A stretch of 34,455 bases of DNA from Macrostomum lignano. Lineage: Eukaryota. The notes below the pieces were generated by a model that had not been told where the DNA came from, did not search any database, and saw only the letters and a list, made by a program, of their open reading frames with translations. A program made the position numbers and the translations under genes. The stretch covers positions 1 to 34,455 of the forward strand of contig NIVC01004812.1 of assembly GCA_002269645.1 (NCBI GenBank), written 5' to 3'. Below are positions 12,859-34,455 of this stretch, in pieces; the first letter of the stretch is position 1, and each line of letters opens with the position of its first letter.

Positions 12859-13084
12859 CCCCCCCTACGCAATTAACTGCTTTCCTGTCCCCTATTCGCT
12901 TGGTCAGGAAATTGAAGAAGTTTGCGAATTTTCTTTGTTGCTTTCTGTATGCCTCACTTAGCAGAGGAATGTTAGCCTGCCGTTGATGGCTGGGAAACAA
13001 AGTCCGCTTCTAACTTCTTTTTTGGCACCAAGGAAATGCTTTGAGTCTTCGCGCTTTTTCTATGCCCATGCTTGTCCTATGCTG

Positions 13085-13928
13085 CAGATTGACATTCCCC
13101 AACCCTATCCTATGGTGCAGATAGACATTCCCCAACCCTATCCTATGGCACAGATAGACATTCCCCAACCCTATCCTATGGTACAGATAGACATTCCCCA
13201 ACCCTATCCTATGGCACAGATAGACATTCCCCAACCCTACCCTATGGCACAGATAGACATTCCCCAACCCTATCCTATGGTACAGATAGACATTCCCCAA
13301 CCCTATCCTATGGCACAGATAGACATTCCCCAACCCTACCCTATGGCACAGATAGACATTCCCCAACCCTATCCTATGGCACAGATAGACATTCCCCAAC
13401 CCTACCCTATGGCACAGATAGACATTCCCCAACCCTATCCTATGGCACAGATAGACATTCCCCAACCCTATCCTATGGCACAGATAGACATTCCCCAACC
13501 CTACCCTATGGCACAGATAGACATTCCCCAACCCTATCCTATGGTACAGATAGACATTCCCCAACCCTATCCTATGGCACAGATAGACATTCCCCAACCC
13601 TACCCTATGGCACAGATAGACATTCCCCAACCCTATCCTATGGCACAGATAGACATTCCCCAACCCTACCCTATGGCACAGATAGACATTCCCCAACCCT
13701 ATCCTATGGCACAGATAGACATTCCCCAACCCTACCCTATGGCACAGATAGACATTCCCCAACCCTACCCTATGGCACAGATAGACATTCCCCAACCCTA
13801 TCCTATGGCACAGATAGACATTCCCCAACCCTACCCTATGGCACAGATAGACATTCCCCAACCCTATCCTATGGCACAGATAGACATTCCCCAACCCTAC
13901 CCTATGGCACAGATAGACATTCCCCAAA
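13085..13928. repeat. 33-bp minisatellite, ~25 copies, at the 5' end of CA intron 2
   Basis: Unit CAGATAGACATTCCCCAACCCTA(T/C)CCTATGG(C/T)A; begins ~16 nt past the GTGAGT donor. Confidence 0.97.
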
Positions 13929-13944
13929 TGACACGCAGACTCAC

Positions 13945-14296
13945 CGCCCATATTAATCAGCGTGTCATTTGCCAGAGCCTTTTCAAGGTCTTTAAACAGA
14001 GGATTATCGGTGGCCGACACTTCGTAGAAAACGCCCAGCACCGCCAGGCCATTGGGCCGACTGGCTGCCATGCTGATATTGGCATAATCTTTGGAATTGT
14101 AGAACACCAGGTGACCTTCGGCTGCGTAAGATTTCTTATCCAAGGTGTGCTCGGAACCCTGCTGATCAGAGCTGCCCCAGTGCCAGTGCAGCTGAGCAGC
14201 TGTGTACATCTGGTCCGCGGCAGTCTGGCCCATTGTGATTGATAGCTCGGGCGACCAGTTCAATTCGATTTTGTGACCGTCGTTTTTCAGCGTGAA
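13945..14296 (-). CDS. Alpha carbonic anhydrase, exon 2 (zinc ligands)
   Basis: CTCCAG|TTC acceptor and G|GTGAGT donor; NDGHK (His64-like), QLHWHWG (His94/96), GSEH, EGHLVF (His119). Confidence 0.93.
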
Positions 14297-16174: not shown

Positions 16175-17867
16175 TTACAGATGCCGCGAGCTGTACACCG
16201 TGATGCACCTGAGCAAACGCCGAGCATACTCCGGATGAGTTGCATCCACCTTGAAGCGTTGACTCCACATGTCGCTGAAGTCGCGATGTGCCGACTCCAT
16301 CGCCTGCTCAGACCAAAACCCAAGGCCTCGGCGACACCCATATTGTACTGCCATCGCTTCCAAAAACTGCGGCACGTGGTCAATGAGGGCATGGGCCTTC
16401 GGAGTGATGTTGATGGCCAGAGCGTGGTATGCCGCCTCGAACTCTTTGACTGCTGTATCGTAGCCTTCAAGCAGTTGTTGGCCGAAGCACTTCTGCTGGA
16501 CAGCTCGCAGGCAGCTGAATGCATGGGCGACAGGCACTCCGCTGAAGGCAGCGTGGTCAGCGAGGATCTGGCGCAGGCTGTCGACTCCACCAAGCAGTCG
16601 GTCGCACTCATTGCCATTGAACTGGCTGCCATGATACGGTGAGCGCCGTACGTGAAGAGCCTCAGCCCACTGTGCAGCACGGACTCCGTCGGGACCCAAT
16701 GCTGTCAGGCGCTGCTCAAGCTCGTCGTACAGCCTGTTGACAAGGCCTAGCAGCAGGTGGAGCTCCATGGGTGGCACGGCTTCTAGCGTGTTTGAACTGT
16801 CTGGCCAATTCAGCAGTGGTTGCCTGATGCAGTTGTGGAATGGCTCTCCTGATGGCTTTGAGCTTCGTTGCCCCTCGATGCGCTGATACTGGGCAGCTTG
16901 GCTGCGAATAGAGCCAAAAGTCCGCAATCTGACACTGCGATGGGGATTGGCGAACTCTTTTCGAGGCGTCTCGCACCACGGGCAGGGATGGGCGCTGCTG
17001 GCGCTCTGCAGTCCAAGAAGCACATTTGCAAGTTTCATGTCCACGGAGCTGCAGAAAGACACGTCTTCTAGGTTCAGCAGATTTAGCACAGTTTGCACGT
17101 TCTCATAGTACTCCGGTACTTTTTCAACTGCTGCGATAATTAATAGCTTCTTTACACCACCTTCGGCAAAAGGGCTGCTGCCGGCCTCGGTGACACCGCC
17201 TAGTAGAACAGATGACTGCTCCCCGGACCGGACCAATGTCATGCAAACTTTAAAAAAGCCGCGTCCTCCATCAATACCAATCTTAAGTAGGAAGCTGCCA
17301 GGATCAGGATCCATTCTCCGCCGTGCCAGCACGTAGCCCACCAAGCCAGAGACGTTGGAGCAGAACACAACAGTCCGCGTTTCAAATTCGCCCGTGCTGC
17401 AACGGACTTGGACTGACTCTGTTGCATAAAATGGATCCAACTCGCTATTCAATTCTGCCAGGCGATGCAGGAGGTTTGGCTCGATCGAACTGCGACCCTT
17501 CCACTCACGGAAGAACTGGGCCGCCTGTCTGGTTTGCCGACCACTCAAACCGATCGCATCCTGCATCCTGGCAATCTCACTAGCCGGCACTGATATGTCA
17601 CCACCCGCGGAGCACCTGCTACTCTGAGCGGACACGCTTAGCGTGATTGGGCGGCCTCGAGTTGCCAGCCGAATAGGCGAATCGCCACCTGCGTCTGTTA
17701 ACTTGGCTTTGAGGACGTCACTAGCATGAATTTCTGAACCACGCGGATCACGTGACAGCTCAGAGCAGATGTTATTTAGCCAGCGAGATTGCGTACAGGT
17801 GTGGCTAAGACCCCTGCCAATGGTGGAGTGACATCTCTGGCAGATGGTGATGGGACGAGCAGGTGGC
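16175..17867 (-). mobile_element. Chapaev/Transib-related (CMC) DDE transposase ORF, 5' part cut off by the Polinton
   Basis: Motifs IGIDGG, VDMKL..LLGLQ....HPCPWC, PPMELHLLLG, TPKAH...H, GFWSEQAMESAH. By my translation the frame stays open upstream of 17635 (C..C..H.C cluster CQRCHSTIGRGLSHTC) up to the junction at 17867. Confidence 0.75.
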
Positions 17868-18137
17868 AGTAGTATATAAAAAGACGCTTCTAGACCCAGA
17901 GCACTTTTTTAATGACCGTTTTAAGGGTCTAGAGGGGGGACACGGGGGGTAAATAAAAAAACACATCTAAACACCATTAATACATCTAATCACCCATAAT
18001 CACCCCTAACAATAAAAATCATTCCCAACACTTCCAAACACTCCCCAACACCCCCCTCGCGTCCCCCCTCTTAAGACCTTAAAAACGGCCATTAAAATAA
18101 GGTCTGATCTGTAAGCGTCTTTTTCTATACTACTACT
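17868..18137. repeat. Imperfect inverted repeat at the Polinton left terminus
   Basis: 17868-~17950 (AGTAGTATATAAAAGACGCTT...) pairs with ~18048-18134 (...AAGCGTCTTTTTCTATACTACT), about 80% identity by eye. Confidence 0.85.
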
Positions 18138-18191
18138 CTATAACCCCTTGCCCGCGCCGCAGGCGCGAAGGGTCTTTTTCTGTTACTAAAA

Positions 18192-18757: not shown

Positions 18758-21700
18758 TTAGTTCGCAGACATTATCTGGTTCCAGTGCTGGGCGTTAACT
18801 AGTTAATTGTTTAACTAGTTAATTAACTAGTTAAATTTTTTTTAAAATCGTTAAATTTTCGTTAAATTTTTTATGTATTAACTAGTTAACAAAAATCGTT
18901 AATTTTTTTCTGTAAGTTAAAGTTAAATGACAAAAGTTAATAATTCCGGGAAATGGAGTTCCCCGGGTTCAAAATCCGCGGGTTTCAACAGCTTGTATGC
19001 ATTAAAAAGTAAAATTAATACATACATAAAATAACTTCGCCTTTCTAAGCATTATTTAACGCGTCACAAACTACTATTACATGTATATAATTTCAGTTAC
19101 AAGTTATAATGTATTGAATATTCCGGAAGATTCTGGAATCTTCAACTATTATCTATTGATATTCTACCCAAGGACTACTAGAAGTTATCGTTGTACATAG
19201 GGATGTCGATTCCCCGGGGAATTTTCTTATCGGGGACCCGAGTAATTTACTGTCATTCCCCGGGGACCCCGGGGACTCCGGGGAAAAATAAGTAAAAAAC
19301 GGCGGATAACTTAGATCTTAAGTCACTAAGTGGCAATTCTTAAACTTTGATTAAAGCTTTGGATGGACTACATGTTCAAGGCGCAAGGGTAAAAACTTAA
19401 GGCAATGTTTGTTTAAAACTGTATTTGACAACGTGGCATCACCAAAACGTGCGCGCACCTTTATCAGAAAGGGTCCAGACTCCGGAGGCGGAAAATGCAT
19501 ACTCAGCAGCTGCACTCGAGGGAGGATAATTAATGAATGAGACTGTTTTTATAATCGGAATTTTAATTTCTTGCAGATACATGTAAATCACAATTTTGTC
19601 CTGTCTAATAGGGAGTATTTTGTTATTGTATGACACCCCCCTATGCGTTAGTGACTGACGCAGGATATGGCGCTGTGCCTGCGTCAAATGCGTCAAGCCG
19701 TCAACGCAGACCAACACAATAGTCAGTAAGGCTTCTTTTTCCTGACGGCTTTCTACGCTCGTACGTTCAATTTGCTTGATTGAAAGACTCATAGTGAAAA
19801 AAAACATTCAAACGGGTCGCTAACTTCATAAGACCGAAATTTCACAACGCCGAAAATTCTGCATGCAATACAATCCTTATTGTAAGGTTTTCTACGATGT
19901 GAAATTTCGATCTTATGAAGTTTCGGTCTTGTGAAGTATGGTGTTTCGGCGTTGTGAAATTTCGGTCTTATGAACCCCCCCCCATTCAAACGTGTGTTGT
20001 GTTTGAAATAATACATTGAAATAAGCAGTTTTGCGGTAAAAAAAGCATAGACAGAGTTTCAATCAGCTTTCTGTGAATGATTTTCTTATTTAAATGGCAA
20101 AAATTTAGTTAAAAATGCTTTTTTTCTCCCCGGGGTCCCCGGTCTAATTCCCCGGGGAGTATTCCCCGACAAGCTCCCCGGGGCCCCGGGGAGCCCTCCC
20201 GGGGTCGACATCCCTAGTTGTATACATGTAGTTGTAATTCTGCCTTCCCTGCTGCGCTGCTCCGCGTCGCGCTGCATAGATATTTCCTTGTCGCGTTGCA
20301 CCATTCTGCGCCATGTCGCGCCGCCGCGCGACTTCCCGCGCCGCCGAACGACCTCCTGCGCTGCGTCGCGCCACCGCGGCGCGCCGCGCCGCACCGCGAC
20401 CTGGCCACAGCCGCGCCGCGCCGACCTGAAATTTAAAAAACGCGCCGGACGCATGTCCGGGAAAATGTCACTTTTTCCGTTAGAGAATTATTAACTTTAA
20501 CTTTTAACTTTTCAGAAGTTAAATTTTGGGCAAAAGTTCAATAATTAACTAGTTACAGTTAATTTTTTTGGAGCAATTAAATTAACTTTTTAACTTTTAA
20601 CGAGTTAAAAAAATTGATTAACTTGCCCAGCACTGTCTGGTTCTCATAAAAAGAACCCAATATTTCTTCACCATCCTTATCAGCAATTATATAGGTTGTA
20701 GGATTTGTATTTAAAACTTTACTGATGGTAAATTTCTCACTTATTTTCCAATATCCTTTTCTTCCCTTTTCAAACTTATCTTTCCATTTATAGATATAAA
20801 CAGAATCACCAACCTTAAAACCTTTAGTTTTCTTTTTTTCAAAATCTCCAAAAGTAACCCTAACATTTTCAGGATTGTTATAAGCTTGTTGAGGAGTCAT
20901 CTTTATCGCCGAATGATATGAATTGTTATAATCTTTCACTACGTCTGGTAATATTTTTACCCATTTTTGGTTACCATTAAGACTAAACTGAAACCATAAT
21001 TTCTTACCTAAAGTTCTATTAAATCTTTCTATTAATGCGTTTTTACTCTCTCCATAAATAGAATAAATTTTATTAATATACTCCCCATTCGCGTCCTTTT
21101 TCCTTTCTTGTCCTTTTTCAAAATGGTACAATTTATACATGTGAGGATTGTAAAATTCTTTTCCTTCGTCAACACACAACCTTTCACTTTTTTCTCCAAG
21201 ACTTCTAAAAGCAGCAGCAACCTCCTTTCCCTTTTTGGATTTTAAAGGAACAGCCCACGCGTATCGAGTAAAACCATCTAATATGGTTAAGATATATTTA
21301 TATCCTCTTTCGTTCGGCATCGACATTAAATCAGCATACCAAATTTCATTCTTTTTGAAGTTCATGATTTTTCTATAAAATTTAGGTTTTCGATATTCTT
21401 TATGAAGAATCTTTGCCTCATCAGAACTTAACCCGCCGCCACTTAACAACAAACACTCAACACAATTATTTCCATGTTGATTATAATTAATTCCCAAACC
21501 AAATTTAACTTTAGACTGCAAGATCTTTTTAACCATCCACCTAGTTAATTTTTGACCTACCGATAATCCCTGCAAGTTATCTAATCCTTGAATCATTTTT
21601 TGATCGGCTTCATGTTTTAATCTTAATGCTTCCTCGGGTGTGTTCTTATCAGCATCTCTGTATGCTAAGTCATGATAGTATGCTAACCAATCAATTCCAT

Positions 21701-22226
21701 TTATGGGAATTGAATCGGCTTTTGGGGTGTCATCAGGATTTAATCTCAAATCTAAGCGAGTGCCGGGTAGTTTACCCTCAATCTTTCGAAAGAGGCTGGA
21801 GCACACCTTAAGCGGCGATAATTACCGCCCATCTCCGTCTGCTCTCTGAACCTTCTCCTTATATTTAAAATACTTAGGAGCTTGGCTGCGCATTGCCACC
21901 GTGTCTTCAAGCTTTTTACCATCGAACCATAGGTTCGCGGACGAAGTCCGATTGGGAAGAGGAGTTACCTCTGTTCCTTCAAAAGATTTCTCAATTGAAG
22001 TGGTACTTGAAGCTGTATGACGGGTTTCACGCAATTTGGAGATGTCGCCACAAATAGTGACTAGCAAGGACATTGCCTTCCTCACTCAGGCCACGGGTTA
22101 ACCTGTGAAGTTCATTGATGGTAGGTGTAGCTCACCCGTATACCTCCCAGTAGTAAATATTGGTGGTAAGCTTGTTAATCCTTTTTGAACATCTAAAAAT
22201 CCTCCTTCAAATACTATTTGGTTCAT
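18758..22226 (-). CDS. PLA2-like domain fused to retroviral-type (rve) integrase; split by a group I intron and by a hAT insertion (exons 22226-22101, 21767-20636, 18774-18758; 424 aa restored)
   Basis: ELHLPSMNFTG^PGTRL...PINGIDWLAYYHDLAY...HEADQKM...KVKFGLG is a parvovirus VP1u-like PLA2. Integrase motifs IWYADL (D), ILDGFTRYAW, VDEGKEF (D), IERFNRTL (E). Removing the hAT restores GSFYENQIMSAN*. Confidence 0.85.
19198..20216 (-). mobile_element. Second hAT-derived element nested in the first, with a remnant of the hAT dimerization domain
   Basis: TIR TAGGGATGTCGA / TCGACATCCCTA; 8-bp TSD GTTGTACA/GTTGTATA (7/8); CCCCGGGG subterminal repeats; PPSSAAAEYAFSASG (~19439-19528, -) resembles the hATC PASSA.SER.FS..G motif. 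Confidence 0.8.
19814..19982. mobile_element. 169-bp MITE (MULE-like) nested in the second hAT
   Basis: 9-bp TSD CATTCAAAC (19805-19813, 19983-19991); perfect 31-bp inverted repeat 19825-19855 / 19944-19974. Confidence 0.85.
21768..22100 (-). ncRNA. Group I self-splicing intron (IC1-like, with P5abc), 333 nt, no internal ORF
   Basis: P1 exon CAGGU / GCCUG with U-G at the splice site; P3 CAUCUCC (22044-22038) / GGAGAUG (21836-21830); P4 UGCGU/GCGCA; P6 GCC/GGU; P6a CUCCU/AGGAG; P7 GAGAGCA (21846-21840) / UGCUCC (21803-21798); core P AAAUUGCG, Q AAUGCGCAGCC, R UCAGAGAGCA, S AAGGUGUGCUC; P8 GGCG/CGCC; P9 with GAAA loop; P9.0 AG/CU; removal restores the frame and the PLA2 motif. Confidence 0.92.
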
Positions 22227-22734
22227 TTTTAATGTTTAAAAAACATGTTTCTATCAATTTAATAATTTCTAAATATTGGTCACCATATAAAAAATTTAAA
22301 GCAAATTCCCCAGTTAACAAGGTAACTCCATTATCAAATACTTTTTGTACGGGGTTTTTAGTAGTATTATTAATGCAAATATAATATAAATCAAATTCGG
22401 GATTAACATATTTAAATTCTAATAACTTTTGAATATTTCTAAATCGACTTGATGAATTATCTGTGTTATCAGAAGATTTTAACTCTAACGCAACTTTTCT
22501 TTCTGTATGAATTAAATCAATTTTATTTACTTTTTCAAAACCAAAATGTTTAATAGCTAATAATTCATAAAGAGATCCAAGTCTCATTTGTATTGTTTTA
22601 ATACGGTTTGCAATTATTAATTCATCTTGAAATATTTTATTTAGTATTCTGTCAGAACCAACTTTATCATAAATAGGCTTACAAAGGTGGTCTTTTATTG
22701 TTTCATCCATTTTATAAAAAAATAAATTTAACAA
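22207..22734 (-). CDS. PD-(D/E)xK nuclease-like protein (type II restriction endonuclease-like)
   Basis: E...IDLIHTERKVALELK...NTDNS pattern recalls Eco47II-like enzymes of large DNA viruses; likely start MDETIKD at ~22710; overlaps the PLA2 start by 20 nt. Confidence 0.55.
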   Translation of the reverse strand: MLNLFFYKMDETIKDHLCKPIYDKVGSDRILNKIFQDELIIANRIKTIQMRLGSLYELLAIKHFGFEKVNKIDLIHTERKVALELKSSDNTDNSSSRFRNIQKLLEFKYVNPEFDLYYICINNTTKNPVQKVFDNGVTLLTGEFALNFLYGDQYLEIIKLIETCFLNIKNEPNSI

Positions 22735-23444: not shown

Positions 23445-24917
23445 ATGGCTGAAACAAAAACTATGTGGAGTGATAAATTTCATTTCAAAAAGCACCGACA
23501 GTATATTAATGAGGTCAGAGCAAGAGATTTAAATTATACCCTACCAACAAGTGATAATTCAAATAACTTTACTACTGGAACGGTAACTTTTGACATCGGC
23601 GCAACCAACACTATATTGGATATGAAAAATGCGTTTTTCCGCGTTAGATGGTTGTATACTAGAAATGATGGAACTGCTCTTGCAGCCGGAGATATCGCAG
23701 ATCGATCCGGAATAATAATAGAAAATGATTGGTTTTATAAATGTTTTTCCCAAGCTCAACTAACTGTTAATGGTGCTGAGGTTGAGACATCATCAAACCC
23801 CGCAGAGATTAATGGAGTTTTGAAACATTTAAATTATACTTATTTATCAAAACAAGTTGGTGATAATGTTGGGTGGATGCCGGATAAAGGTAACGGTCAA
23901 GCAGTAGTTTTCCCTAATGTACAAAACGCAGCTGGTGCAGATACTGCAGCTCTAATTGCTTACCTTAATACAAACATAGTTCCAGTTGTAACCACTATGA
24001 CTAATACAAAAGATATTAACACCGGCTTTATAGATCGTCAGAAAAAATTCCCAGTTGCAGTTTTAACCACGGCAACGGCATATGAGCAGGACTTTTCAAT
24101 CTTCCCGCTATTTGGGTTCTTCTCACCAAATCGGGTATGGAAAGGATTAAAATTTGGGATACAGTTGCAAATATCTGGTGGATATCAGCCTAGGATACTT
24201 TATGGAACCTCAATTTCAACCGATATAGCAGTTCGTATAGATTCAATTCAATTAGTCGTACCAACTATTGAGGTAACAGCCCCACTTTTAAAACACATCG
24301 ATAATCAGTTAACGCATGATCAGGAAATATTTTATTTGAATCGTCGACATTTTATGCGAACCATTAATAATAACCAGGATTCATTCCAGTGGCAAATACT
24401 GACATCAAAACGTCGGGTGAGATATATTTTTGTTTGGTTTAAGATAACAAATAGAAGGAGTAAAAGAGCAAATGGGGATTTATATTGGCTTCAATCCGGT
24501 GCCATAGCAGAACAAGCAGCCACCGCAACAGACAATGCGGCTGCAGCTATTAACGAGTTTAATGTTCAGAATATCCGCCTGCAGGTTGATGATCAATATT
24601 ATCCGGTTAAAGACCCCCTAAATTTAAATATAGCAAATAATAATGTTAATGATTTTATAAAATATTATCAAGATTATGCTAAAAATGAAGCGTATGCCGT
24701 CCCTCAGTACACACCCACAGAGTTTCTAAACATTCATCCAGTGGTTGTTTATGATCTAACGGCACAGAAAGAAAACGTAGCCAATATTGGACTTAATTAT
24801 ATGTTAGAGATTAATAAAACCGGTAATCAGGCACTTGACGCCCACGTATTGTTTCTAGAGGAATATATGTCAATTGCTAAAGCTGATGGCACGATTGTTC
24901 GGGACGCGCCACTTTAG
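23445..24917 (+). CDS. Major capsid protein (double jelly-roll, Polinton PY)
   Basis: FSQAQLTVNGAEVE, RYIFVWFK, NVQNIRLQVDDQYYP..PLNL, PVVVYDLTAQKE match Polinton MCP patterns; 490 aa, intact. Confidence 0.85.
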   Translation: MAETKTMWSDKFHFKKHRQYINEVRARDLNYTLPTSDNSNNFTTGTVTFDIGATNTILDMKNAFFRVRWLYTRNDGTALAAGDIADRSGIIIENDWFYKCFSQAQLTVNGAEVETSSNPAEINGVLKHLNYTYLSKQVGDNVGWMPDKGNGQAVVFPNVQNAAGADTAALIAYLNTNIVPVVTTMTNTKDINTGFIDRQKKFPVAVLTTATAYEQDFSIFPLFGFFSPNRVWKGLKFGIQLQISGGYQPRILYGTSISTDIAVRIDSIQLVVPTIEVTAPLLKHIDNQLTHDQEIFYLNRRHFMRTINNNQDSFQWQILTSKRRVRYIFVWFKITNRRSKRANGDLYWLQSGAIAEQAATATDNAAAAINEFNVQNIRLQVDDQYYPVKDPLNLNIANNNVNDFIKYYQDYAKNEAYAVPQYTPTEFLNIHPVVVYDLTAQKENVANIGLNYMLEINKTGNQALDAHVLFLEEYMSIAKADGTIVRDAPL

Positions 24918-25000
24918 TGTCGCAGTGCAAAGCACGTCGCCCCCGCTGTAAGCGGTGCAGGTCTCCGACCGTCGCGCCTATTTAAATTATTTCTTTAAAA

Positions 25001-25755
25001 ATGGTAAAGGCAAAACACGATAAGATATTTCCAAATGATCCTTTTCTTTGTTTAGTAATCGGAGGATCAGGTAAAGGAAAAACACACTTTGTTTACGATT
25101 TATTAACAACAGATGGAATGTTAGACTATAATAATTTAATAATTTATACTAACAAACCTAGAAAAAATATTATGAATTTCTTAAACATGGATTAAAAAAC
25201 AAATTAAAAAAAGATGTCTTGTTTAGAATGTTAGGAGCATATGAGCAATATGAGGATGATGACGAACCGCGATTTACACTCGATGACATTGAGGATTTAT
25301 GTAAAACAATGGCACAACAACCAGAAAACATCACCGAACGAGCCCCAACTGTTAGAGTATCAACCCGATTAGCCTATGATCAAATTCCAAAACATGATAA
25401 AACACTAATTATTTTTGATGATTGTATTAATGACGGTGATCAAGAATTGCAAAAGGAAATTTTTGTTAGTGGTAGAGGAGATGGAATTGGAGCTTTTTAT
25501 CTAACACAGTCCTTTAGAGAATTAGAATCGATTATAAAAAAGAATGCAAGTTGTTGTGTAATGTTTGATTTAGATAATTATGATTTACAAAATATACACG
25601 CTAGATTTAATCCTGGGTTGGATACAAAACAATTTAAAAGCTTGTGTAAAAAAATTTGGGATGATAGCCAATACAAACATATATATATCAACCCAAGGTT
25701 AGAAAGGAAAAATCGAATCTTAAAAGATCTGATGAAAGAGGACGATGAGGATTAA
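25001..25755 (+). CDS. FtsK/A32-like packaging ATPase, one frameshift near 25155-25165
   Basis: Walker A GGSGKGKT, Walker B LIIFDD, SGR...IGAFYLTQS; the two ORFs join via EKYYEFLKHGLKNK in the second frame. Confidence 0.88.
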
Positions 25756-25770
25756 TTTCCCACTATAAAA

Positions 25771-26556
25771 ATGACTACAAATTTAAATACTATAAAACAA
25801 TTGGTAGATCGAACTAATTCAAAATTTAGTACAACCTTACAGTTTATAATGACAACCAGTGAACAACGTATTCAATTGCGCGACCCGTTACAACTTGATC
25901 AAAGCCTAAGTTATCAAATAGGTTTGATACTATTTTCGGTTTTTAACATGCCTCAATTAATTAATGCAACAAATAATCAATTTAGATATTCTAAAGATTC
26001 CGGAGCCAATTGGACAACATTTAGCGTTAACCCAGGAGCGTATTCCTATACCGATTTGAATGCTTATATAGAAGGAGAATTAACAACTAATGGAGATTGG
26101 GTATCAGGCGCAATTGTTATAGGGGTTGATTTACCATCTGGCAGATTCACACTATCACTAGGATCCGGATATCAGGTTGATTTCACAATTGCAAATTCAC
26201 TCAGAACCATACTCGGATTTAATTCCCGAATCGTTACCACATCAAGCACCGGCGATACTGTTGGAAATATTGAGGGTGGTGTTAATACAATTAATATTAC
26301 AACCGACATATCAAACGGCGGTTATATAACAGATAATAATGGAGTTTTGGTTCAACGTGGAATTATTTATTCAATCCCATTTCTTGCTGTTCCAATTGGA
26401 GAGAAAATGATTGTTTCACCCCAAACCCCAATATATTATCCTTTAAATCAATATAGTGTTCAATCAATTTATATTAGGATTGTAGATGAAAGCGATAGAT
26501 TAATAAGTTTTGGTGGGCAGTCAATAACAATAATTTTACGTATAAAACAGGTTTAA
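25771..26556 (+). CDS. Minor capsid protein (penton, single jelly-roll; PX)
   Basis: beta-rich; INITTDISNGGY...GIIYS....P.GEK..V.P..PIYYPL....VQSIYIRIVDESDRLISFGGQSITIILRIK is typical of Polinton mCP. Confidence 0.8.
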   Translation: MTTNLNTIKQLVDRTNSKFSTTLQFIMTTSEQRIQLRDPLQLDQSLSYQIGLILFSVFNMPQLINATNNQFRYSKDSGANWTTFSVNPGAYSYTDLNAYIEGELTTNGDWVSGAIVIGVDLPSGRFTLSLGSGYQVDFTIANSLRTILGFNSRIVTTSSTGDTVGNIEGGVNTINITTDISNGGYITDNNGVLVQRGIIYSIPFLAVPIGEKMIVSPQTPIYYPLNQYSVQSIYIRIVDESDRLISFGGQSITIILRIKQV

Positions 26557-26566
26557 TATTGTAAAA

Positions 26567-26737
26567 ATGGGTAACAATAGTTTAAAAAAACAAACGGAAA
26601 AAGTTCAAAATGCAAAGGATAATTATGAAATCGAACTAACAAAATTGAAACAACTGCAAGCAGAAAAAATCCGAAAGGAACTGTTAAAATCCAAACCAAC
26701 GAAACTAACCAAAACCAAGAGTTTTTCAGGAACATAA
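26567..26737 (+). CDS. Small basic protein (56 aa, MGNNSLKKQ...), below the ORF-track cutoff
   Basis: AAAAATGG start; fills the penton-protease gap exactly; Lys-rich. Confidence 0.5.
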   Translation: MGNNSLKKQTEKVQNAKDNYEIELTKLKQLQAEKIRKELLKSKPTKLTKTKSFSGT

Positions 26738-26738
26738 A

Positions 26739-27176
26739 ATGACTATGAATTGGCAGTTGTTCAAACAAAGATATGGAACAGACACAACAAGCAATATTGA
26801 ATTAACAAATTGGGCGCGACAACTAAAAATAAAACCATTCAGATGTGTTATGCGAGATGAGATCAAAGACTTACCACAATATGGATCTTTCATTGTTAAT
26901 ATTGAAACAACAAAAGAAAACGGGGTTCATTGGTCAGCAGTTTATTCAAAACCTAAACTTGTTTATTTTTTTGATTCATACGCGCTTCCTCCGTTACAGG
27001 AAATAAAAGATAAATTTAATCATACTAAAAATCGTTTATGTGGAGATCATCATGAACAATTTCAAACATTTGACAAAAGTTATTGCGGGCAAGCGGCGTT
27101 GTATTTTTTATATAAAATTAATAACTCTAAGGAAAGACCCGAAGCATTTAAAGCAATTTTAGATTCTATAAAATAG
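26739..27176 (+). CDS. Adenain-like cysteine maturation protease
   Basis: GVHWSAV (His), YFFDSY (Asp), QTFDKSYCG (Gln, Cys). Confidence 0.9.
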   Translation: MTMNWQLFKQRYGTDTTSNIELTNWARQLKIKPFRCVMRDEIKDLPQYGSFIVNIETTKENGVHWSAVYSKPKLVYFFDSYALPPLQEIKDKFNHTKNRLCGDHHEQFQTFDKSYCGQAALYFLYKINNSKERPEAFKAILDSIK

Positions 27177-27186
27177 ACAGTAAAAA

Positions 27187-29232
27187 ATGTTATTTTCTGG
27201 AACACCCTCATGGAACGGAACAACAAGTACTGGTGGAGGCGCATCTGGTGGAATAAGTGTTACATTCGGAGATAACCGATATATTAATGAAGATGAAGGT
27301 TATAAAAAAACTGAAATTGATAATAAACTAAATTTGAAACGGAATGTTGCAGATTCCTATACCAAAACTCAAATAGATGATTCATTAAATTTAAAACGCA
27401 ATACAGCCGATTCTTATACCAAAACCGAAGTTGATAATTCCCTAAATTTAAAACGGAATGTTGCCGATTCTTATACCAAAACTGAAGTTGATAATTCCCT
27501 AAATTTAAAAAGAAATATAACTGATTCTTATACCAAAACTGAAGTTGATAATTCCCTAAATTTAAAAAGAAATATAACTGATTCTTATACCAAAACTGAG
27601 GTTGATAATTCATTAAATTTAAAACGGAATGTTGCAGATTCTTATACCAAAACCGAAGTTGATAATTCCCTAAATTTAAAAAGAGATATAACTGATTCTT
27701 ATACCAAAACTGAGGTTGATAATTCCCTAAATTTAAAACGGAATGTTGCCGATTCTTATACCAAAACCGAAGTTGATAATTTAGTTGGAGGTGGAGCCCC
27801 AAAACAGGATCGATTCCAAACGGTTGAAACCGGACACGTACCAACTATGGCAGCTTGGAGTGGAAATGGTTTTGCAATATCCGCAAGCACAGCATTTAAT
27901 ACAACCGATTTTGCAAGTTGGAAAGCGTTTGATGGTAATGATTCAACAGATTGGGCAACAAATAATACTCAAACTGATTATTGGATTCAAGTCCAATGTC
28001 CATCCGCGATAATGTGTTATAAAATTGATTTACGTGGGAGACCATCACCATCAACCGAACACCCAGCATCATGGCGATTTGAGGGCAGTAATGACAATAC
28101 GAGCTGGGATGTTTTAATACCGGCTGGCAGTTCTGTAGAAATAAATAACTCAACTCAAACAATTAATGTCACACAAAATTTTGATAAAACATATTCATAT
28201 TTCAGATTGTTCTGTCTTACATCAACATCGGGTTCTACCAACCCCGGCTTATCAACTTTTCAGATTTATAGACAGACTTTTACAATTCTTGATTTAAATT
28301 TGGGAGTTGTTAATCAATCAATTGATATGGGTGGTAACACAATTACTAACATATCTACTATAAACAATAACAGTTCTGTTGTTACTAAAGGTTATGTTGA
28401 TACGCGAGTAACCCAAACGGCAGATGGCCGAATGTCTTTTAACGATAAAATAAAATTGGATGGCATACCGGCAATTGATGCCGCTTTGTACGAACCCGTA
28501 ATTTGCAATTGGACTGGGTATCAAAATCCAACCACTGCCGGCGATATTTTTCCAACAGGAAGTTTCGTTGGCGACGCTTCTTATATCGATTATCAAAATG
28601 GAGCTAGAATTACTCGTGAAACCTCAGGTGTAAGTGGTGCTTTACAATTTAATTTCACCCATTTTCGTAATATATCCGCCTCCTTCTATTTCCGAGTTGC
28701 TAATGCTACAGGAGATGGTGCTGACGCTGTTTGGTTTTATGCATACTGTCATGAACGACCAACAAGTGAATTTGGAACTGGATTAACAACCGACGCCGGC
28801 TTGATAGTGTTTGCGAGTGAATGGCATGACAGAGTTGGGGTTCTTTGGAGTAATAAAAAATCAGACGGAGCAACAGTTCGTAATGATGTTCTTAATGACG
28901 CCGATCAAACGATAACTTATGCAAATATTGATAATGGCGATTGGCATTTATTTGAAATTAATATTTTAAATCAAAGAGTTTGGTATCAATTAAGATCATA
29001 CAATGTTTCAACCAAAGTTTATACACTAATTGGGCAAAACTTTTTTACATATGATAGCGGAACTTGGGGAGAGTTGGATAAAACAGGAACTCTTATGGGG
29101 TTTGGTGCTCGAACTGGAGGATCGGATGCTGCACATTTTATTCGTGGTGCCGCCGTTTGTGGTAGCACATCAGCAGGCTATGATTTTGCTGCGACCGCAT
29201 ATTTGGAACAACCACCCACACAGATCAGCTAA
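27187..29232 (+). CDS. Fibre/receptor-binding protein: 19-aa YTKTEVD repeat stalk, discoidin (F5/8C)-like domain and lectin-like domain
   Basis: ~8.5 x 57-bp repeats (27301-27780); KAFDG...W...YWIQV...W.FEGSND...W...YSYFRL; VVTKGYVD; GDGADAVWF...GDWH...GFGARTGG. Confidence 0.75.
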   Translation: MLFSGTPSWNGTTSTGGGASGGISVTFGDNRYINEDEGYKKTEIDNKLNLKRNVADSYTKTQIDDSLNLKRNTADSYTKTEVDNSLNLKRNVADSYTKTEVDNSLNLKRNITDSYTKTEVDNSLNLKRNITDSYTKTEVDNSLNLKRNVADSYTKTEVDNSLNLKRDITDSYTKTEVDNSLNLKRNVADSYTKTEVDNLVGGGAPKQDRFQTVETGHVPTMAAWSGNGFAISASTAFNTTDFASWKAFDGNDSTDWATNNTQTDYWIQVQCPSAIMCYKIDLRGRPSPSTEHPASWRFEGSNDNTSWDVLIPAGSSVEINNSTQTINVTQNFDKTYSYFRLFCLTSTSGSTNPGLSTFQIYRQTFTILDLNLGVVNQSIDMGGNTITNISTINNNSSVVTKGYVDTRVTQTADGRMSFNDKIKLDGIPAIDAALYEPVICNWTGYQNPTTAGDIFPTGSFVGDASYIDYQNGARITRETSGVSGALQFNFTHFRNISASFYFRVANATGDGADAVWFYAYCHERPTSEFGTGLTTDAGLIVFASEWHDRVGVLWSNKKSDGATVRNDVLNDADQTITYANIDNGDWHLFEINILNQRVWYQLRSYNVSTKVYTLIGQNFFTYDSGTWGELDKTGTLMGFGARTGGSDAAHFIRGAAVCGSTSAGYDFAATAYLEQPPTQIS

Positions 29233-29302
29233 TGCTGCGACCCTACGGGGCGATCGCCTAAGGCGCGGACTTCGTCCGATCAGTTAAATATTTCTATATA
29301 AA

Positions 29303-29629
29303 ATGGCTTTTAGTAGAACTCCATCGATGCGGCAAAATAATGTTATTATTCCTATTCCTAAACAAGAATCAAATATAAAAACATTCAAATCTCATACCAA
29401 ATTTTTATTTAGTACTGTAAATGTTCAGGATAATAAGAAGCTTCAAGAATTAATTAAGTTATTAAAAAATCATATTATACTTCAAGAGTTTTGGAAAATA
29501 GGATTTAAATGGGAGAAAAAAGAAAGAATCACTCCAATACAATACCTATTGAGCTCGGGACAAATCCCCAAAGAGCGCGGGGAATTCATTTTGGTGCTAT
29601 TAAAAATAGACGAGAATGTCGGTATCTGA
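29303..29629 (+). CDS. Polinton hypothetical protein (108 aa)
   Basis: Intact ORF with TAAAATGG start; overlaps the next gene. Confidence 0.55.
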   Translation: MAFSRTPSMRQNNVIIPIPKQESNIKTFKSHTKFLFSTVNVQDNKKLQELIKLLKNHIILQEFWKIGFKWEKKERITPIQYLLSSGQIPKERGEFILVLLKIDENVGI

Positions 29630-30272
29630 AGCAGATAAATGGGAACGCGACCGGTTCAACCAACGTAAAGGTCAGATGTTAAGTAATGTTGATCGTATTA
29701 ACTATGATTATGATTTATATACTAAAAAAGTAAGAAGAGTTTCAAACCATATAAGAAATATGGACTTTTTCAATATTGGATTTGGAAGCTTATCAATGTT
29801 ATGTGTAATCGTTTTAGGTATTTTACAATCTATTCCAACTCTTAATTTATCTCAATTATTTTTAGGTATTTCAATTGGCTCAATATCAGGTTTTGAATTG
29901 ATCAGAAACTTATCAATACTTTTAGCAATTAAATTATATCTTAAAAAAAGAAAGGAAAAATATAAATCATTAAGAGATGTTGCCAAGCAATATAAAAATC
30001 AGTTATATTTATATGTGCAAAAAATATTGGATGACGGAGAGATAACGATTCATGAATTATCAACCGCGGTTGAGTTATATGAAAAATATTTAAAAGATAG
30101 AAATAGAATTTTAGATGTTGAAACTTTTACCGATATGGAATTAAAAGAGTTGAGACTCGATAAACCCAAAGCTCCACCGATAGAAACATTAGGCATTTAC
30201 GAACCTGAAACTATTGCTACTGGGGCACAAAGCCCGCGGTCAGGAAGTGCGGTAGAACTTCAGGTTGTTTAG
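29616..30272 (+). CDS. Two-TM protein of a type common in Polintons
   Basis: Two hydrophobic segments followed by KKRKEKYKSL and KILDDGEITIHE pattern. Confidence 0.65.
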   Translation: MSVSEADKWERDRFNQRKGQMLSNVDRINYDYDLYTKKVRRVSNHIRNMDFFNIGFGSLSMLCVIVLGILQSIPTLNLSQLFLGISIGSISGFELIRNLSILLAIKLYLKKRKEKYKSLRDVAKQYKNQLYLYVQKILDDGEITIHELSTAVELYEKYLKDRNRILDVETFTDMELKELRLDKPKAPPIETLGIYEPETIATGAQSPRSGSAVELQVV

Positions 30273-30752
30273 TTTTTCTAATGCATATGTTATATATTCT
30301 TCCCAAAGTGGTAACTCTCTTCTGATCCTAGGTTTAAATTTTTTATCAATACATAAAAATTCCAATGACTTTTTCAGTAACATTTCGTTAGGTATGTTAC
30401 CTATCCTTATAAACTTTGTATTCTCTCGAATAAGAAAATTGAAATAATATCCAACTAAAATTAAAATCCTTTCGGAGTCTTTCGAACTTAATCCCTTTCC
30501 TTTATTTAAATGGAAAAAGTTATTATATAAATAAACATTATTTCCGGGAATTAAAATTGGATCAGAAATGTCTCTTGTAAGATTTCTTAAAATTGTATTT
30601 TTAAAATAGTAATATGAGTTTTCAATCTTTTTTGTTTTTTCAAATTGATATATTTTAGAACATGAATAACACATATGATATATATCTCCGTTTGCTGTTT
30701 GCCCTCTGTGCATAGTCACATTACATTTATTACATTCGTAAATGTCTTTCAT
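30240..30752 (-). CDS. Hypothetical protein with N-terminal Zn ribbon
   Basis: CNKC...CYSC; AAAAAATG start. Confidence 0.6.
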   Translation of the reverse strand: MKDIYECNKCNVTMHRGQTANGDIYHMCYSCSKIYQFEKTKKIENSYYYFKNTILRNLTRDISDPILIPGNNVYLYNNFFHLNKGKGLSSKDSERILILVGYYFNFLIRENTKFIRIGNIPNEMLLKKSLEFLCIDKKFKPRIRRELPLWEEYITYALEKLNNLKFYRTS

Positions 30753-30778
30753 TTTTTTGTTATTTTTTTAGATTAAAA

Positions 30779-31111
30779 ATGGAGAGCTGGTTCAAAACCG
30801 ATTCTAATGTGATTAATTATCTCACACCCAATATGTTGGAGAATAAAGAATATAATATTATATGTTTGAGACAGGTTAAATTTATTGGGCTTCAATCAAT
30901 ATTTTTACAATTAGATGGGCAAAAAATTTTATGTCTAAGCGGAGATGATGTTAAAAATTTTCCTGTTTTAGTTATTAATAAACCTAAAGCGTTTGTTATG
31001 AAATACTGCAACGAGGGTGGATTGCAATTTAAACTAAAACAAACAAATAATAAAAAGAGTGATAGGACTGTAAAATTGGCGGCTGTTTGGGAGGATGACG
31101 ACGAAGACTAA
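30779..31111 (+). CDS. Polinton hypothetical protein (110 aa)
   Basis: TAAAAATGG start, acidic tail. Confidence 0.55.
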   Translation: MESWFKTDSNVINYLTPNMLENKEYNIICLRQVKFIGLQSIFLQLDGQKILCLSGDDVKNFPVLVINKPKAFVMKYCNEGGLQFKLKQTNNKKSDRTVKLAAVWEDDDED

Positions 31112-31126
31112 ATTTTTTATAAGAAA

Positions 31127-31375
31127 ATGGATACGATAAAAATCCTTATCACTAAAGAGCGTGAACTTAATGATATTAATAAAAAAATAAATATAATTAT
31201 ATCTCAGAAATATCATGAGTATGGGGACGATATGTTTCCCATCCGATATGAAATGGATAAAAGAAAACGTTTTATTAAATCTGCAATTGCTTATGCTGAA
31301 ACAGTAATTGAAATCGAAATAGATAGGTTGGTTAGAAAAATAAAAAAACTTAGGAAAAAAATAAAGATTGTTTAA
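31127..31375 (+). CDS. Small coiled-coil/basic protein (82 aa)
   Basis: GAAAATGG start; K/I-rich helical sequence. Confidence 0.5.
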   Translation: MDTIKILITKERELNDINKKINIIISQKYHEYGDDMFPIRYEMDKRKRFIKSAIAYAETVIEIEIDRLVRKIKKLRKKIKIV

Positions 31376-31491
31376 GTTACCCTGACGACTGCGAGGAAAA
31401 TTGGCCTTCAATATTATATGAAATCGAAATGGATATTATGCTTAAACAATTACATGCTTTAGTTTTTTTCCGCCCCGAAGGGTCGCGGATT

Positions 31492-31740
31492 TTATCCGAT
31501 AAGTAATTTTTCTGTTAATCTCTTCCAGTTATTCAAGACTTTTTCCTTATTTAATTTTTTAAGTTCTTTTGGAAATGTTGAATAATAATTATCTATATCT
31601 TTTTCATATTCTAGAAATGTATTATATTCACAATCACATTCGGATTCACAATCACAATCGTAATAATAATTATTTATTGCCGCTTTGTATTCATTATATT
31701 TACTTATTATATCTTCTTTTTGTTTTTTATCTTTTATCAT
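31492..31740 (-). CDS. Small hypothetical protein (82 aa, CDCESECDCE)
   Basis: ATGA overlap with the PolB stop. Confidence 0.5.
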   Translation of the reverse strand: MIKDKKQKEDIISKYNEYKAAINNYYYDCDCESECDCEYNTFLEYEKDIDNYYSTFPKELKKLNKEKVLNNWKRLTEKLLIG

Positions 31741-34455
31741 ATTTTTATCTCTTCTTTTAAACCAAATGGATATGTTTTAATTTTATCATCTAAATATCTT
31801 TTATCATCAAATGGACTTAATGTTTTTTTATCTGTCTCGATGACAAACATCTGATGCTTATCTGAATTTAATCGATATTGTGGAGCATGATAATTTTCAA
31901 TTGTATTAAGGTAATCTAAAAGTACGTTTTTATAATCATCAAATGTTATCTTTTTAACTGCTGCCCTTGATACCCCTTTTATTTTTTTTACCTCTCCCTC
32001 CTGTCCTAAAACTTTAAATGCATAGCATTTGATCTTATTGCTATAAACTCGGTTATGATTTTGCTATTTAATTCATCTTTCATTTTAAGTACAACTTTTT
32101 TATTTTGATCTGATTTTAAAGGATGGTTATCCGGATAGTCGGAGGTATCCAATGTATCCTTAATTTTTTCCATATCTTTATAGACATCGAACCTTTGGTT
32201 CGCGGGCTTTGCCCGATCCTCTGTTTCAACCTTAAATACCAAACTGTCGGTGTCTGCATATATTGGATAGTTATCTGGCCATGTTTTATTTATAACATCA
32301 TAATAATATTCATACATTACCAGCTTTGCATAATCTAAAACAACCATTCCAATAAATATTGGTTTAAGAAATTTTGTTGTTTTATTTCTCATATGAATAC
32401 CCATAAAGTTATCATCAAATTTTATAAAGTCTTTAAAGTTAGGTTTTGAGAAATATTTCTTTGCTTTATCAATATCCTTTTCTAAATGGAATTGGGTTCT
32501 ATCTCTAATATTTTCAACCGTTTTTCCATAAAAAGCATTATTCATTAATTTCCAATAATCTTTCTCAAAATTTGTTTTTGACATCTGTCTCTGATTTGAA
32601 TTAAAATCAATATATTTAGCTAACCAATCTTCCTCAATAAACGATATTGTTCGATGTACTTTAGACACTTTTAATCCCTGCTTTTCATAAAATTGTAGAA
32701 GCTTATAATGCACTACATAGTTTTTCTTATCATGTAAATTTAATATTAATTTTTTGTTGCTAGATGTTTTGCATTATCTACTTTAAGATAATCTTTTTGT
32801 GTTTGTGATAAATCATCTTCATTAACTGAACAATGCTCTGGAGCTAAAGGATATTTATATGTTTTTGCTTTTGCTTCCCGAGTATATTGCAAATCCACCT
32901 CTACAATACAGCCCCTTCCTTCGGGAATATTTTTGTAATAATCGGGGTCATCTTCCCATTGGAAATCAGCTATTGGTAATTTTTGTTTCATACAACCACC
33001 GTATAAATTGTTTGCATCTAGATATAATACATATGATGATTTTTCTTTTTTATTATAATTTGGTAAGATATTTATTATTTACTTTAGTATATCTATCTCC
33101 TAGTACACCCGAGAATCCGCCGCGAATTCCTCTCTCAATCATTAACAACATATCATGATCAGTTAGTAAATCAATCTTAACATCTGTATGTTTCAAACCA
33201 CAAGCCCATGTTAATCCCGGTGCACTGAAACAATATGCGGGATCAATTTTAAAATTCTCATATGTATGATTCCTAAAGTTTTCAAATGCATCAGCTAATA
33301 GGAGAACATCTGCTTTAAGATATAGATTATGATAATCTTTAAATGTTTTACAATTAAAGTATTTCCATACTTTTTGAGCGTGTTCATAATCCGATTCACT
33401 TATATTTGATTGTGATAATGTGGAATAAAACTTTTCTATGGGCGGTAATTCGGTATGAAAAAATACGTCTTCAGATGTTACATATTCATATGGATAGATG
33501 CCCTTACGAGTTAATAGCATTAGTTCTTCCTCGGATAGTTTTTCTTTTTTGAAACGATTCAATAGTATTGGAAAGTTTTTCTTTACTATTTCTAAATCCC
33601 ATGGTTTGGAACTAATGATGAAACAACATTTGCAAAGATGTTGATAAGAATCTCAAGGAATCTAGAAAAACTAGATGGGAGTATTTCTTACCATATGTTA
33701 TTGATATGTAATTTTCTGATGTTTTAGGTAATATATTTATTTCATATTCATCCTTTCCTAAATGAAGCAATTCTCGAACTAAGAAATGAAAATCATATCC
33801 GGAACCATTATGAAAAAATACTGGTATTTCCTTACATCCTTTTCCTTCTTTGCATTACATGATCTACATGCTGCCCCTCGATAATTTCCTGTTAGATGAC
33901 AATGTTCTCGTATCTTATTATTCTTACTTAAATGTCTTTTGCACATAAAACAATTTGTTGCATTTTTATAATTGTCTCTATCCTTATTTGTCATATTAAT
34001 ATTTTTTGATAATTTATCATATTGATTTTGAATATATTCAAATACATTTACTAATGATTCTGCCATGTGCTTAGCTGCATCATTACCGTGGTAAGTAATC
34101 ATCCTTGATTTAAATATATGATCAGCTACAGAGTGTACATATATACAATAACTATCGGAAACTGTTGTGCCAATTTTTTTTGTGCATTCGTCCCGTAGGG
34201 TCGCGTGCTTTGCACGATCCCCATCATCAGATGCCGTCTGTGATTCTTTTAAGGGAACATTTGTTGCTTCAAAATCAGCATATATTACTATTGGTTTTTT
34301 AACTGCCATATAATGTTGTTGGAACTTTAGGGTTTGCATCTTCAGATGCTGGCATTATAGCATTAGTAAATTTGTGATCTAAACAAAATCGTTGGTGGTT
34401 TTAAGAGCTGTTTCATCCTTTTTTAAATGTAAAACAATTTCTACATAGTGGATAT
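31737..34455 (-). pseudogene. polB: Protein-primed family B DNA polymerase with endonuclease VII-like insert; about 10 single-base frameshifts; 5' end outside window
   Basis: ExoI PIVIYADFE; EHCHLTGNYRGAACRSCN; FHNGSGYDFH; GIYPYEY; YLKADVLLLADAFENFR; YLDANNLYG; KLMNNAFYGK; YADTDS; LSPFDDKRY. Confidence 0.92.

Follow-up and report, generated by a model that had tools for sequence, protein, structure and literature searches.

Does a group I ribozyme splice itself out of an mRNA in an animal nucleus? Such self-splicing-type introns normally occur in fungi, protists and giant viruses. An intron present in many copies in the laboratory flatworm Macrostomum lignano makes this question testable. Nuclear group I introns are described as restricted to rDNA in the consulted portions of two papers (PMC3679873, PMC10964413), and the available part of a 2025 database report places animal group I introns only in placozoans, corals and sponges, mostly in mitochondria (PMC11835236); putative group I introns in five sharks are cited in a review, of which excerpts were at hand (PMC10964413). 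A sequence-only reading of the window, by which we mean the whole 34,455-nt stretch of contig NIVC01004812.1 analysed here, had proposed that 333 nt of its minus strand form a group I intron of subgroup IC1 inside a gene of an endogenized Polinton/adintovirus. That reading overlooked the terminal A of the intron, a neighbouring Eco47II-like nuclease, nuclease-bearing sister introns and the avoidance of GGNCC.

The insert (21768..22100, minus strand) is an ORF-less, 333-nt, IC1-like group I-type intron with A as its last base (21768), identified by Rfam RF00028 and by intron-less alleles. In a search of 701 bases it matches RF00028 (Intron_gpI) at 61.1 bits, above the gathering score of 50, with an E value of 5.3e-15 and over model positions 1-253, so that the proposed group I core was borne out over the full model. 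A fast gathering-mode Rfam scan of the whole window gave no match, which is a filter miss, and a genome-wide RF00028 search scored 28 places with the window copy not among them; the case suggests that Rfam fast filters hide such introns in animal genomes. The GC content of the insert is 47%, versus 29% and 36% in its flanks, which read AAC TTC ACA GGT upstream and CCC GGC ACT downstream on the minus strand.

All of the helices named in the earlier reading can be drawn: P1, P2 with its GCAA loop, P2.1, P3–P9, P9.0 and P5abc, together with four of the five P10 pairs. P1 (22087..22105, minus strand) joins exon CAGGU (22105-22101) to the guide strand GCCUG (22091-22087) and places a U-G wobble at the 5′ splice site; the P10 strand sits immediately before this guide strand. 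The P4-P5-P5abc domain (21887..22033, minus strand) comprises UACC (22005-22002), GGUA (21920-21917), the A-rich bulge AAAAG (21916-21912), a GAAA L5b loop and P5c, plus two small extra hairpins, within about 30 nt, that are missing from many copies. P7 (21798..21846, minus strand) is formed by 21846-21840 and 21803-21798 and has the G-C guanosine-binding pair and the bulged A. Compared with the sister family described below, three P7 pairs are changed on both sides (GAGCA/UGCUC here, GACUU/AAGUC in family B), with the G-C binding pair kept. P5abc with an A-rich bulge, P2.1 and IC1-type joining segments are hallmarks of subgroup IC1. By inspection the intron has the first two and IC1-type J3/4 and J6/7, so the peripheral parts of the IC1 proposal stand; membership itself is assigned by inspection, with scoring only against the general RF00028 model, and we accordingly use the term IC1-like.

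Comparison of copies indicates that this structure is under selection. Covariation was assessed over 46 of 56 distinct introns, the other 10 being dropped with the core anchor motif unmatched. Across this set, 96% of cells are paired, versus 38-51% in slid controls. Two-sided changes occur at 22 of 73 pairs as run, versus 4-8 such pairs in slid controls, or at 20 of 65 with P8 and one mis-assigned helix left out; four fall in P7, three in P3 and one in P4, and all are drawn from three or four lineages and so represent few independent events. The UACC/GGUA pairing, checked sequence by sequence, is present in 41 of the 46. The minimum-energy fold gives a modest signal relative to shuffles (z = -2.47, with 2 of 100 shuffles equally good).

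The interrupted gene encodes a fusion of PLA2 and integrase. Exon 1 (22101..22226, minus strand) has 42 codons, ends in N-F-T-G and has homologous N-termini in intron-less copies; exon 2 (20633..21767, minus strand) holds the remainder of PLA2 in frame with an rve integrase (Pfam PF08398 and PF00665), its 3′ end broken by a transposon. The PLA2 match reaches 34.4 bits on the intron-less copy L059, and a sequence search of the PDB with PLA2 gave no match. Ten of the 13 longer homologues from other sources share the PLA2+rve fusion. As the interrupted gene is such a fusion, splicing would be needed for the full product. The motifs FEGG, FGLG and LSGG flank the PLA2 part (20633-22226, minus strand) and resemble adenain cleavage sites, whose consensus we take them to fit; from these motifs, PLA2-integrase may be a processed polyprotein.

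The boundaries of the intron are set by natural alleles. Other copies in the genome include both intron-bearing and intron-less alleles, in the register GGT|CCC, and all 12 intron-less junctions (L059-L061, L039-L045, L047, L048) read Gly|Pro with no insert, exactly the N-F-T-G/P-G-T loop that excision had been proposed to rebuild. Twelve of the 13 longer homologues are likewise uninterrupted at Gly|Pro, the thirteenth beginning downstream of the motif. Removal of the insert by the host spliceosome, between the AG|GT located just within exon 1 and an AG further downstream, could draw on the CAG|GT at the end of exon 1 and on an in-frame AG a few codons into exon 2 of the window copy. Its product would miss the conserved G-P-G-T loop, however, the downstream AG is not conserved throughout (L062, L065), and a full ribozyme core with a compensated P7 would not be maintained, all of which makes this route very improbable. 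One intron-less locus, L045 (G000:C1874), has an intact intron-less exon 1 that is preceded by a remnant of exon 1 and 43 nt from the start of the intron, an arrangement that reads as a rearranged or recombined copy.

The gene belongs to an integrated Polinton/Maverick (adintovirus, PLA2X-type). The left terminal inverted repeat (17868..18174, plus strand) starts AGTAGT and is the only element end that the window contains. The Polinton core (23445..34339) comprises a predicted major capsid gene (23445..24917), an A32-like ATPase (25228..25755), a frameshifted pPolB (32006..34339) and, within the same span, a likely minor capsid and a likely protease, both assigned by position and motifs, and a fibre-like protein. 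Together, pPolB, the rve integrase, the A32-like ATPase, the predicted capsid and PLA2 fit the description of adintoviruses in the consulted part of PMC8502044. The capsid has look-alikes at 0.97-0.98, including Preplasmiviricota clusters. The pPolB (PF03175, E = 1e-5) and rve (PF00665, E = 2e-7) matches come from partial frames and lie just under their curated cut-offs, the ATPase match is weak (E = 0.007), and the candidate protease gave no Pfam match. The window copy is damaged: besides the frameshift in pPolB, an unrelated 1.85-kb repeat (18783..20632) with short terminal inverted repeats, an 8-bp duplication and dozens of genome copies is inserted in the 3′ end of the integrase. We take this repeat to be hAT-like. 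An imperfect inverted copy of the first 82 bases of the terminal repeat recurs within it (both in 17868-18134), which allows a long hairpin at either end of the element. Beyond the Polinton end, and close to it, is a 463-aa ORF (16175-17566, minus strand) with no Pfam match, probably from another transposon.

The closest ribozyme relatives are found in giant-virus and metagenome contigs, as they would be if the element came from a protist or fungal passenger through contamination or an assembly chimera. Against such a source stand several observations. First, we scored 150 exon-2 matches of 508 candidates, on contigs up to 1.5 Mb. Second, the seven left ends looked at have seven different flanks; both element ends were found in four copies, 17.7-23.2 kb apart, and three of these four have 6-bp target duplications. 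Third, flatworm genes lie alongside: the intron's contig carries a carbonic anhydrase exon 100% identical to a Macrostomum lignano protein and a CPEB domain. Fourth, the stretch is present in 20 runs of 6 studies with a single organism label. The contamination reading is thus largely refuted and we give it next to no probability; endogenization of a Polinton/adintovirus in an animal genome, as first proposed, holds on the same flanks, duplications and animal genes. Long ORFs on both strands at 13010-14233, in the region of the carbonic anhydrase gene, are artefacts of a tandem repeat with a unit of about 33 nt.

How is the intron distributed among copies? The genome contains no fewer than 40 nearly identical copies, the number scored among 196 candidates, and the exon-2 matches form family A, which includes the window copy, and family B, at about 60% protein identity in exon 2. 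In a sample of 64 distinct family-A places, picked by score and diversity and so non-random, 49 have the IC1-like intron, 10 have a second intron type, three are intron-less and two are without exon 1. Family-B loci were picked partly through their nuclease; of the 33 places with a junction, 24 have an intron with an ORF inside and nine are intron-less. Trees from 270 nt of exon 2 and from ribozyme cores have weak support and yield no count of homing events, and intron states are interleaved on them.

The second group I-type intron occupies the same 5′ site at its 10 family-A places (L049-L058; for example, L051:870-1194) and scores 33 bits against Rfam (E = 7e-7). It shares P2, P2.1 and P5abc with the first, at 76-81% identity over 115 nt, and differs in its core (P4 UCACUC/GAGUGA, J6/7 GCA, P7 GACUG/CAGUC), with a compensated P1. 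Its end, placed by homology to the metagenome contig L109, is a G three bases earlier, and the next codons are A-G-L-T rather than P-G-T. From this pattern of shared and differing segments, the second intron looks like a domain-swapped chimera.

Upstream of the intron-bearing gene is a free-standing ORF of 167 aa (22207..22710, minus strand) that overlaps the start of exon 1 by 20 nt and encodes an Eco47II-like PD-(D/E)XK nuclease. Its match to Pfam PF09553 has an E value of 4e-4, the family-B sister ORF scores above the cut-off, and Eco47II matches are weak overall (E from 4e-4 to 1e-7). The predicted model (pLDDT 89.8) has EcoO109I as its best fold match (TM 0.63, Z 9.9, rmsd 3.6 over 166 residues), and D65, E76 and K78 are invariant in 11 nuclease sequences. 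The free-standing protein shares about 65% identity with the one encoded within sister introns; in family B that ORF lies between P2 and P3 (24 places). The metagenome contig L109 has a nuclease in an intron at the same PLA2 site, likewise between P2 and P3, and this intron ends in G. Six of nine close nuclease homologues run on into intron-core sequence, and contigs of three other runs have matching nuclease-intron junction pieces as loose ends. A nuclease profile search returned 294 representatives at E <= 0.001, one of them fused to a C5 methylase. In the genome, C5 methylase (PF00145) has 12 matches, none on the window or on the contigs of the four full-length copies, and an IMG/VR search gave no relatives of the nuclease. 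Within family A the nuclease lies upstream at 25 of 59 intron-bearing places; across both families it lies beside none of the 12 intron-less junctions, which represent few independent cases, and the nuclease-intron association within family A, with only three intron-less copies, is non-significant.

The likely target of this nuclease is suggested by a word that the element lacks. Homologues of Eco47II are given the site GGNCC in the consulted part of PMC10305163, and Gly-Pro codons (GGN|CCN) always spell GGNCC; the intron splits that forced site in the PLA2 loop. No GGNCC is present in the element over 14,738 bp, where 8 sites are expected from a Markov model and 17.9 from simulation, with 0 of 200 simulations reaching 0. 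It is equally missing from the element ORFs, for which codon shuffles have a mean of 13.1 and 0 of 1000 reach 0. Among all 1024 5-mers, the only ones absent from the element are the four GGNCC words. The host side of the window is undepleted (44 sites versus 43.5 expected), and the unrelated insertion has 6. Over 159 kb of family-A loci there are 6 GGNCC sites, 3 of which are intron-less junctions; family B has 20, in 11 of 25 loci with a nuclease-bearing intron, some of them near locus ends or in decayed copies. Between 17868 and 34455, CANTG is also depleted, though not absent (23 versus 47.5 expected), and CCNGG is under-represented (7 versus 14.9). Whole-element avoidance of a 5-bp word fits a short-site cutter better than a long-site homing enzyme. 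With the specificity carried over from Eco47II homologues, we consider it highly probable that the nuclease cuts GGNCC, and the intron splits the one site that the element's neighbouring nuclease very probably cuts. With one intron site tied to element-wide loss of a restriction site, a new nuclease family gains a predicted target that is precise enough to test.

We consider it likely that the mobile group I intron and the restriction-enzyme-derived nuclease form one selfish module in the flatworm Polinton. The nuclease would cut GGNCC, and the element would escape its own nuclease in two ways: GGNCC would be purged wherever possible, and the intron would hide the single site forced by the Gly-Pro codons. 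Rival elements lacking the intron would be cut at the junction and then either lost or repaired from an intron-bearing copy, that is, by homing. The nuclease would come from inside the intron in the sister family, and from next door or in trans in family A, that of the window. Guanosine-dependent splicing would remove the intron from RNA to give the message for the PLA2-integrase polyprotein. Against such a module stand, among other points, the A at the omega position, at the end of the intron, which departs from the group I rule, and the danger that an unrestrained 5-bp cutter would pose to the host genome. A possible escape for the host is restricted expression of the nuclease or a longer preferred site.

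The same avoidance also fits a different emphasis, in which the nuclease acts as an orphan restriction enzyme directed mainly at rival elements or at large DNA viruses infecting the same host, and the intron is kept for removing the last self site, with homing as a side effect. In its favour, the total lack of a 5-bp word is what one would expect of an enzyme with a short site, type II restriction enzymes are the nearest families, and intron nucleases have been proposed as anti-competitor weapons (PMC5871332, in the part consulted). Nevertheless, L109 and 24 family-B places have the ORF within the intron, the arrangement of intron-encoded homing enzymes, and several metagenomic homologues continue into intron-core sequence. 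We regard this emphasis, which overlaps the selfish-module explanation and differs in nothing else, as a tentative possibility and somewhat doubtful.

Does the window intron splice? Its last base, directly after the CU strand of P9.0, is A, and the canonical omega-G is absent from the window copy. Among ORF-less places the last base is A in 43 of 49 and G in 6; among ORF-bearing sisters it is G in all 23 resolved places. We class the family at this site as group I introns, with the window copy as an omega-A variant. One reading is that the introns are real and that the A-ending lineage, including the window copy, has lost splicing and spread by nuclease-driven copying, with integrase supplied in trans from G-ending or intron-less elements. 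The A in place of G, the Rfam scores (61 bits for the window copy and 51 for L064, versus 72-91 for G-ending sisters, the nuclease-bearing sister scoring 85) and the broken integrase end and pPolB of the window copy would fit such a loss. Most of these diverged copies, however, end in A (43 of 49 places), the A-ending copies include a P2 variant in which four pairs have changed on both sides, and genome-wide there are only three intron-less family-A alleles. The exons of A-ending copies are also under purifying selection, with pN/pS of 0.07 in exon 2 (27 distinct) and 0.35 in exon 1 (20 distinct), which suggests that the PLA2-integrase protein is still made. Loss of splicing therefore seems unlikely, and the A-ending copies can with good probability be expected still to splice. 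Because of the A at the omega position, the second splicing step of the window intron is probably slower or leans on the four-pair P10. A natural precedent for a terminal A is the group I intron Cbu.L1917 of Coxiella burnetii, which shares this base with the window intron and whose host gene is bacterial 23S rRNA. Compensation of the omega-A by the altered P7 was considered and rejected, as 5 distinct cores here, and also the giant-virus contig L118, combine this P7 with a terminal G. No RNA run is among those listed as containing the stretch. Assembled contigs carry no weight either way on splicing: in four runs (three guessed to be RNA, one of unknown kind), they cross each splice site unspliced with no joint listed, and the X11 contig spans exon 2 and not the intron.

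In its strongest form, our proposal is that an active omega-A ribozyme splices a protein-coding transcript in a bilaterian nucleus and supplies the immunity in a restriction system that has no methylase. The purged GGNCC sites and the nuclease inside and beside the intron would then be a live snapshot of mobile-intron formation, with a second ribozyme core competing for the same site. For this combination we see the chances as evenly balanced.

Parts of this arrangement have precedents, all cited here from partial texts. RF00028 introns are reported from the Polinton-like viruses of protists (Rhodomonas lacustris cluster C3, Paulinella, Desmodesmus; PMC12220804). Like the window intron, these group I introns lack an ORF, are short (309-376 bp) and lie in small dsDNA viruses that are integrated in nuclear genomes; as described in that text they are known from few protist groups, in a short gene upstream of MCP, whereas the window intron has a bilaterian host, lies in a PLA2-integrase gene, has boundaries set by intron-less alleles and is linked to a nuclease. 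The polr2a/b introns of Bodo saltans virus similarly pair nuclease-bearing parents with ORF-less offspring in essential viral genes (PMC5871332); in giant viruses, however, HNH or GIY-YIG nucleases are involved, and these large viruses infect protists and are not integrated. Collaborative homing has been described in phages (PMC3984707, PMC11296320), where an ORF-less intron occupies the presumed target of an adjacent free-standing nuclease and, in a composite form, the ORF lies in the intron (PMC3984707). The Polinton case differs in having both states in one eukaryotic genome, an Eco47II-like enzyme, an apparent 5-bp site and element-wide avoidance. I-Ssp6803I shares the PD-(D/E)XK fold with Eco47II, EcoO109I and the Polinton nuclease, but reads a 17-bp site (PMC3424549) and is not among the fold matches listed for the Polinton nuclease. 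Eco47II homologues come with a methylase; for the Polinton nuclease, no C5 methylase was found on the contigs checked. Nuclear rDNA IC1 introns share P2.1, P5abc and IC1-type joining segments with the Polinton intron. They are given as exclusive to microbial-eukaryote rRNA genes in the consulted part of PMC3679873, whereas the Polinton intron is in a protein-coding gene.

A literature search limited to the main texts of openly available papers found no report of a group I intron in animal Polintons or animal nuclear elements. A nematode Polinton preprint, in the excerpt available, merely speculates on an intron source for its HNH domain (10.1101/2023.08.22.554363). The earlier statement that no description was known holds, as far as this search reaches, for animal nuclear Polintons and needs qualifying in two respects, by the reported introns of protist Polinton-like viruses (PMC12220804) and by the putative shark introns (PMC10964413), both taken from partial texts. 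Group I introns in Polinton-like viruses are already known, and what is new is the animal nuclear host, the PLA2-integrase host gene and the link to a nuclease. What makes the case interesting is that the intron sits in a protein-coding gene in a bilaterian nucleus and is closely tied to a restriction-type nuclease; its function is predicted from sequence.

Where might the intron have come from? IMG/VR searches gave no match for PLA2, for a long IC1 core pattern or for the second intron core, and no relatives were found among phages. An exact 23-nt P6/P7 stretch of the window intron is also present in two giant-virus contigs, L117 and L118, one match lying in an RPB1 intron and the other near a capsid gene that has its own intron with a similar P5abc. 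Both contigs have the same P7 variant, and the L118 intron ends in G. This shared stretch suggests exchange with giant-virus introns and gene flow between giant viruses and animal Polintons. The giant-virus capsid gene in L117 (1-3100) contains a group I intron; after it come a large nuclease-like ORF and a second, weaker group I core with the P7 variant of the window.
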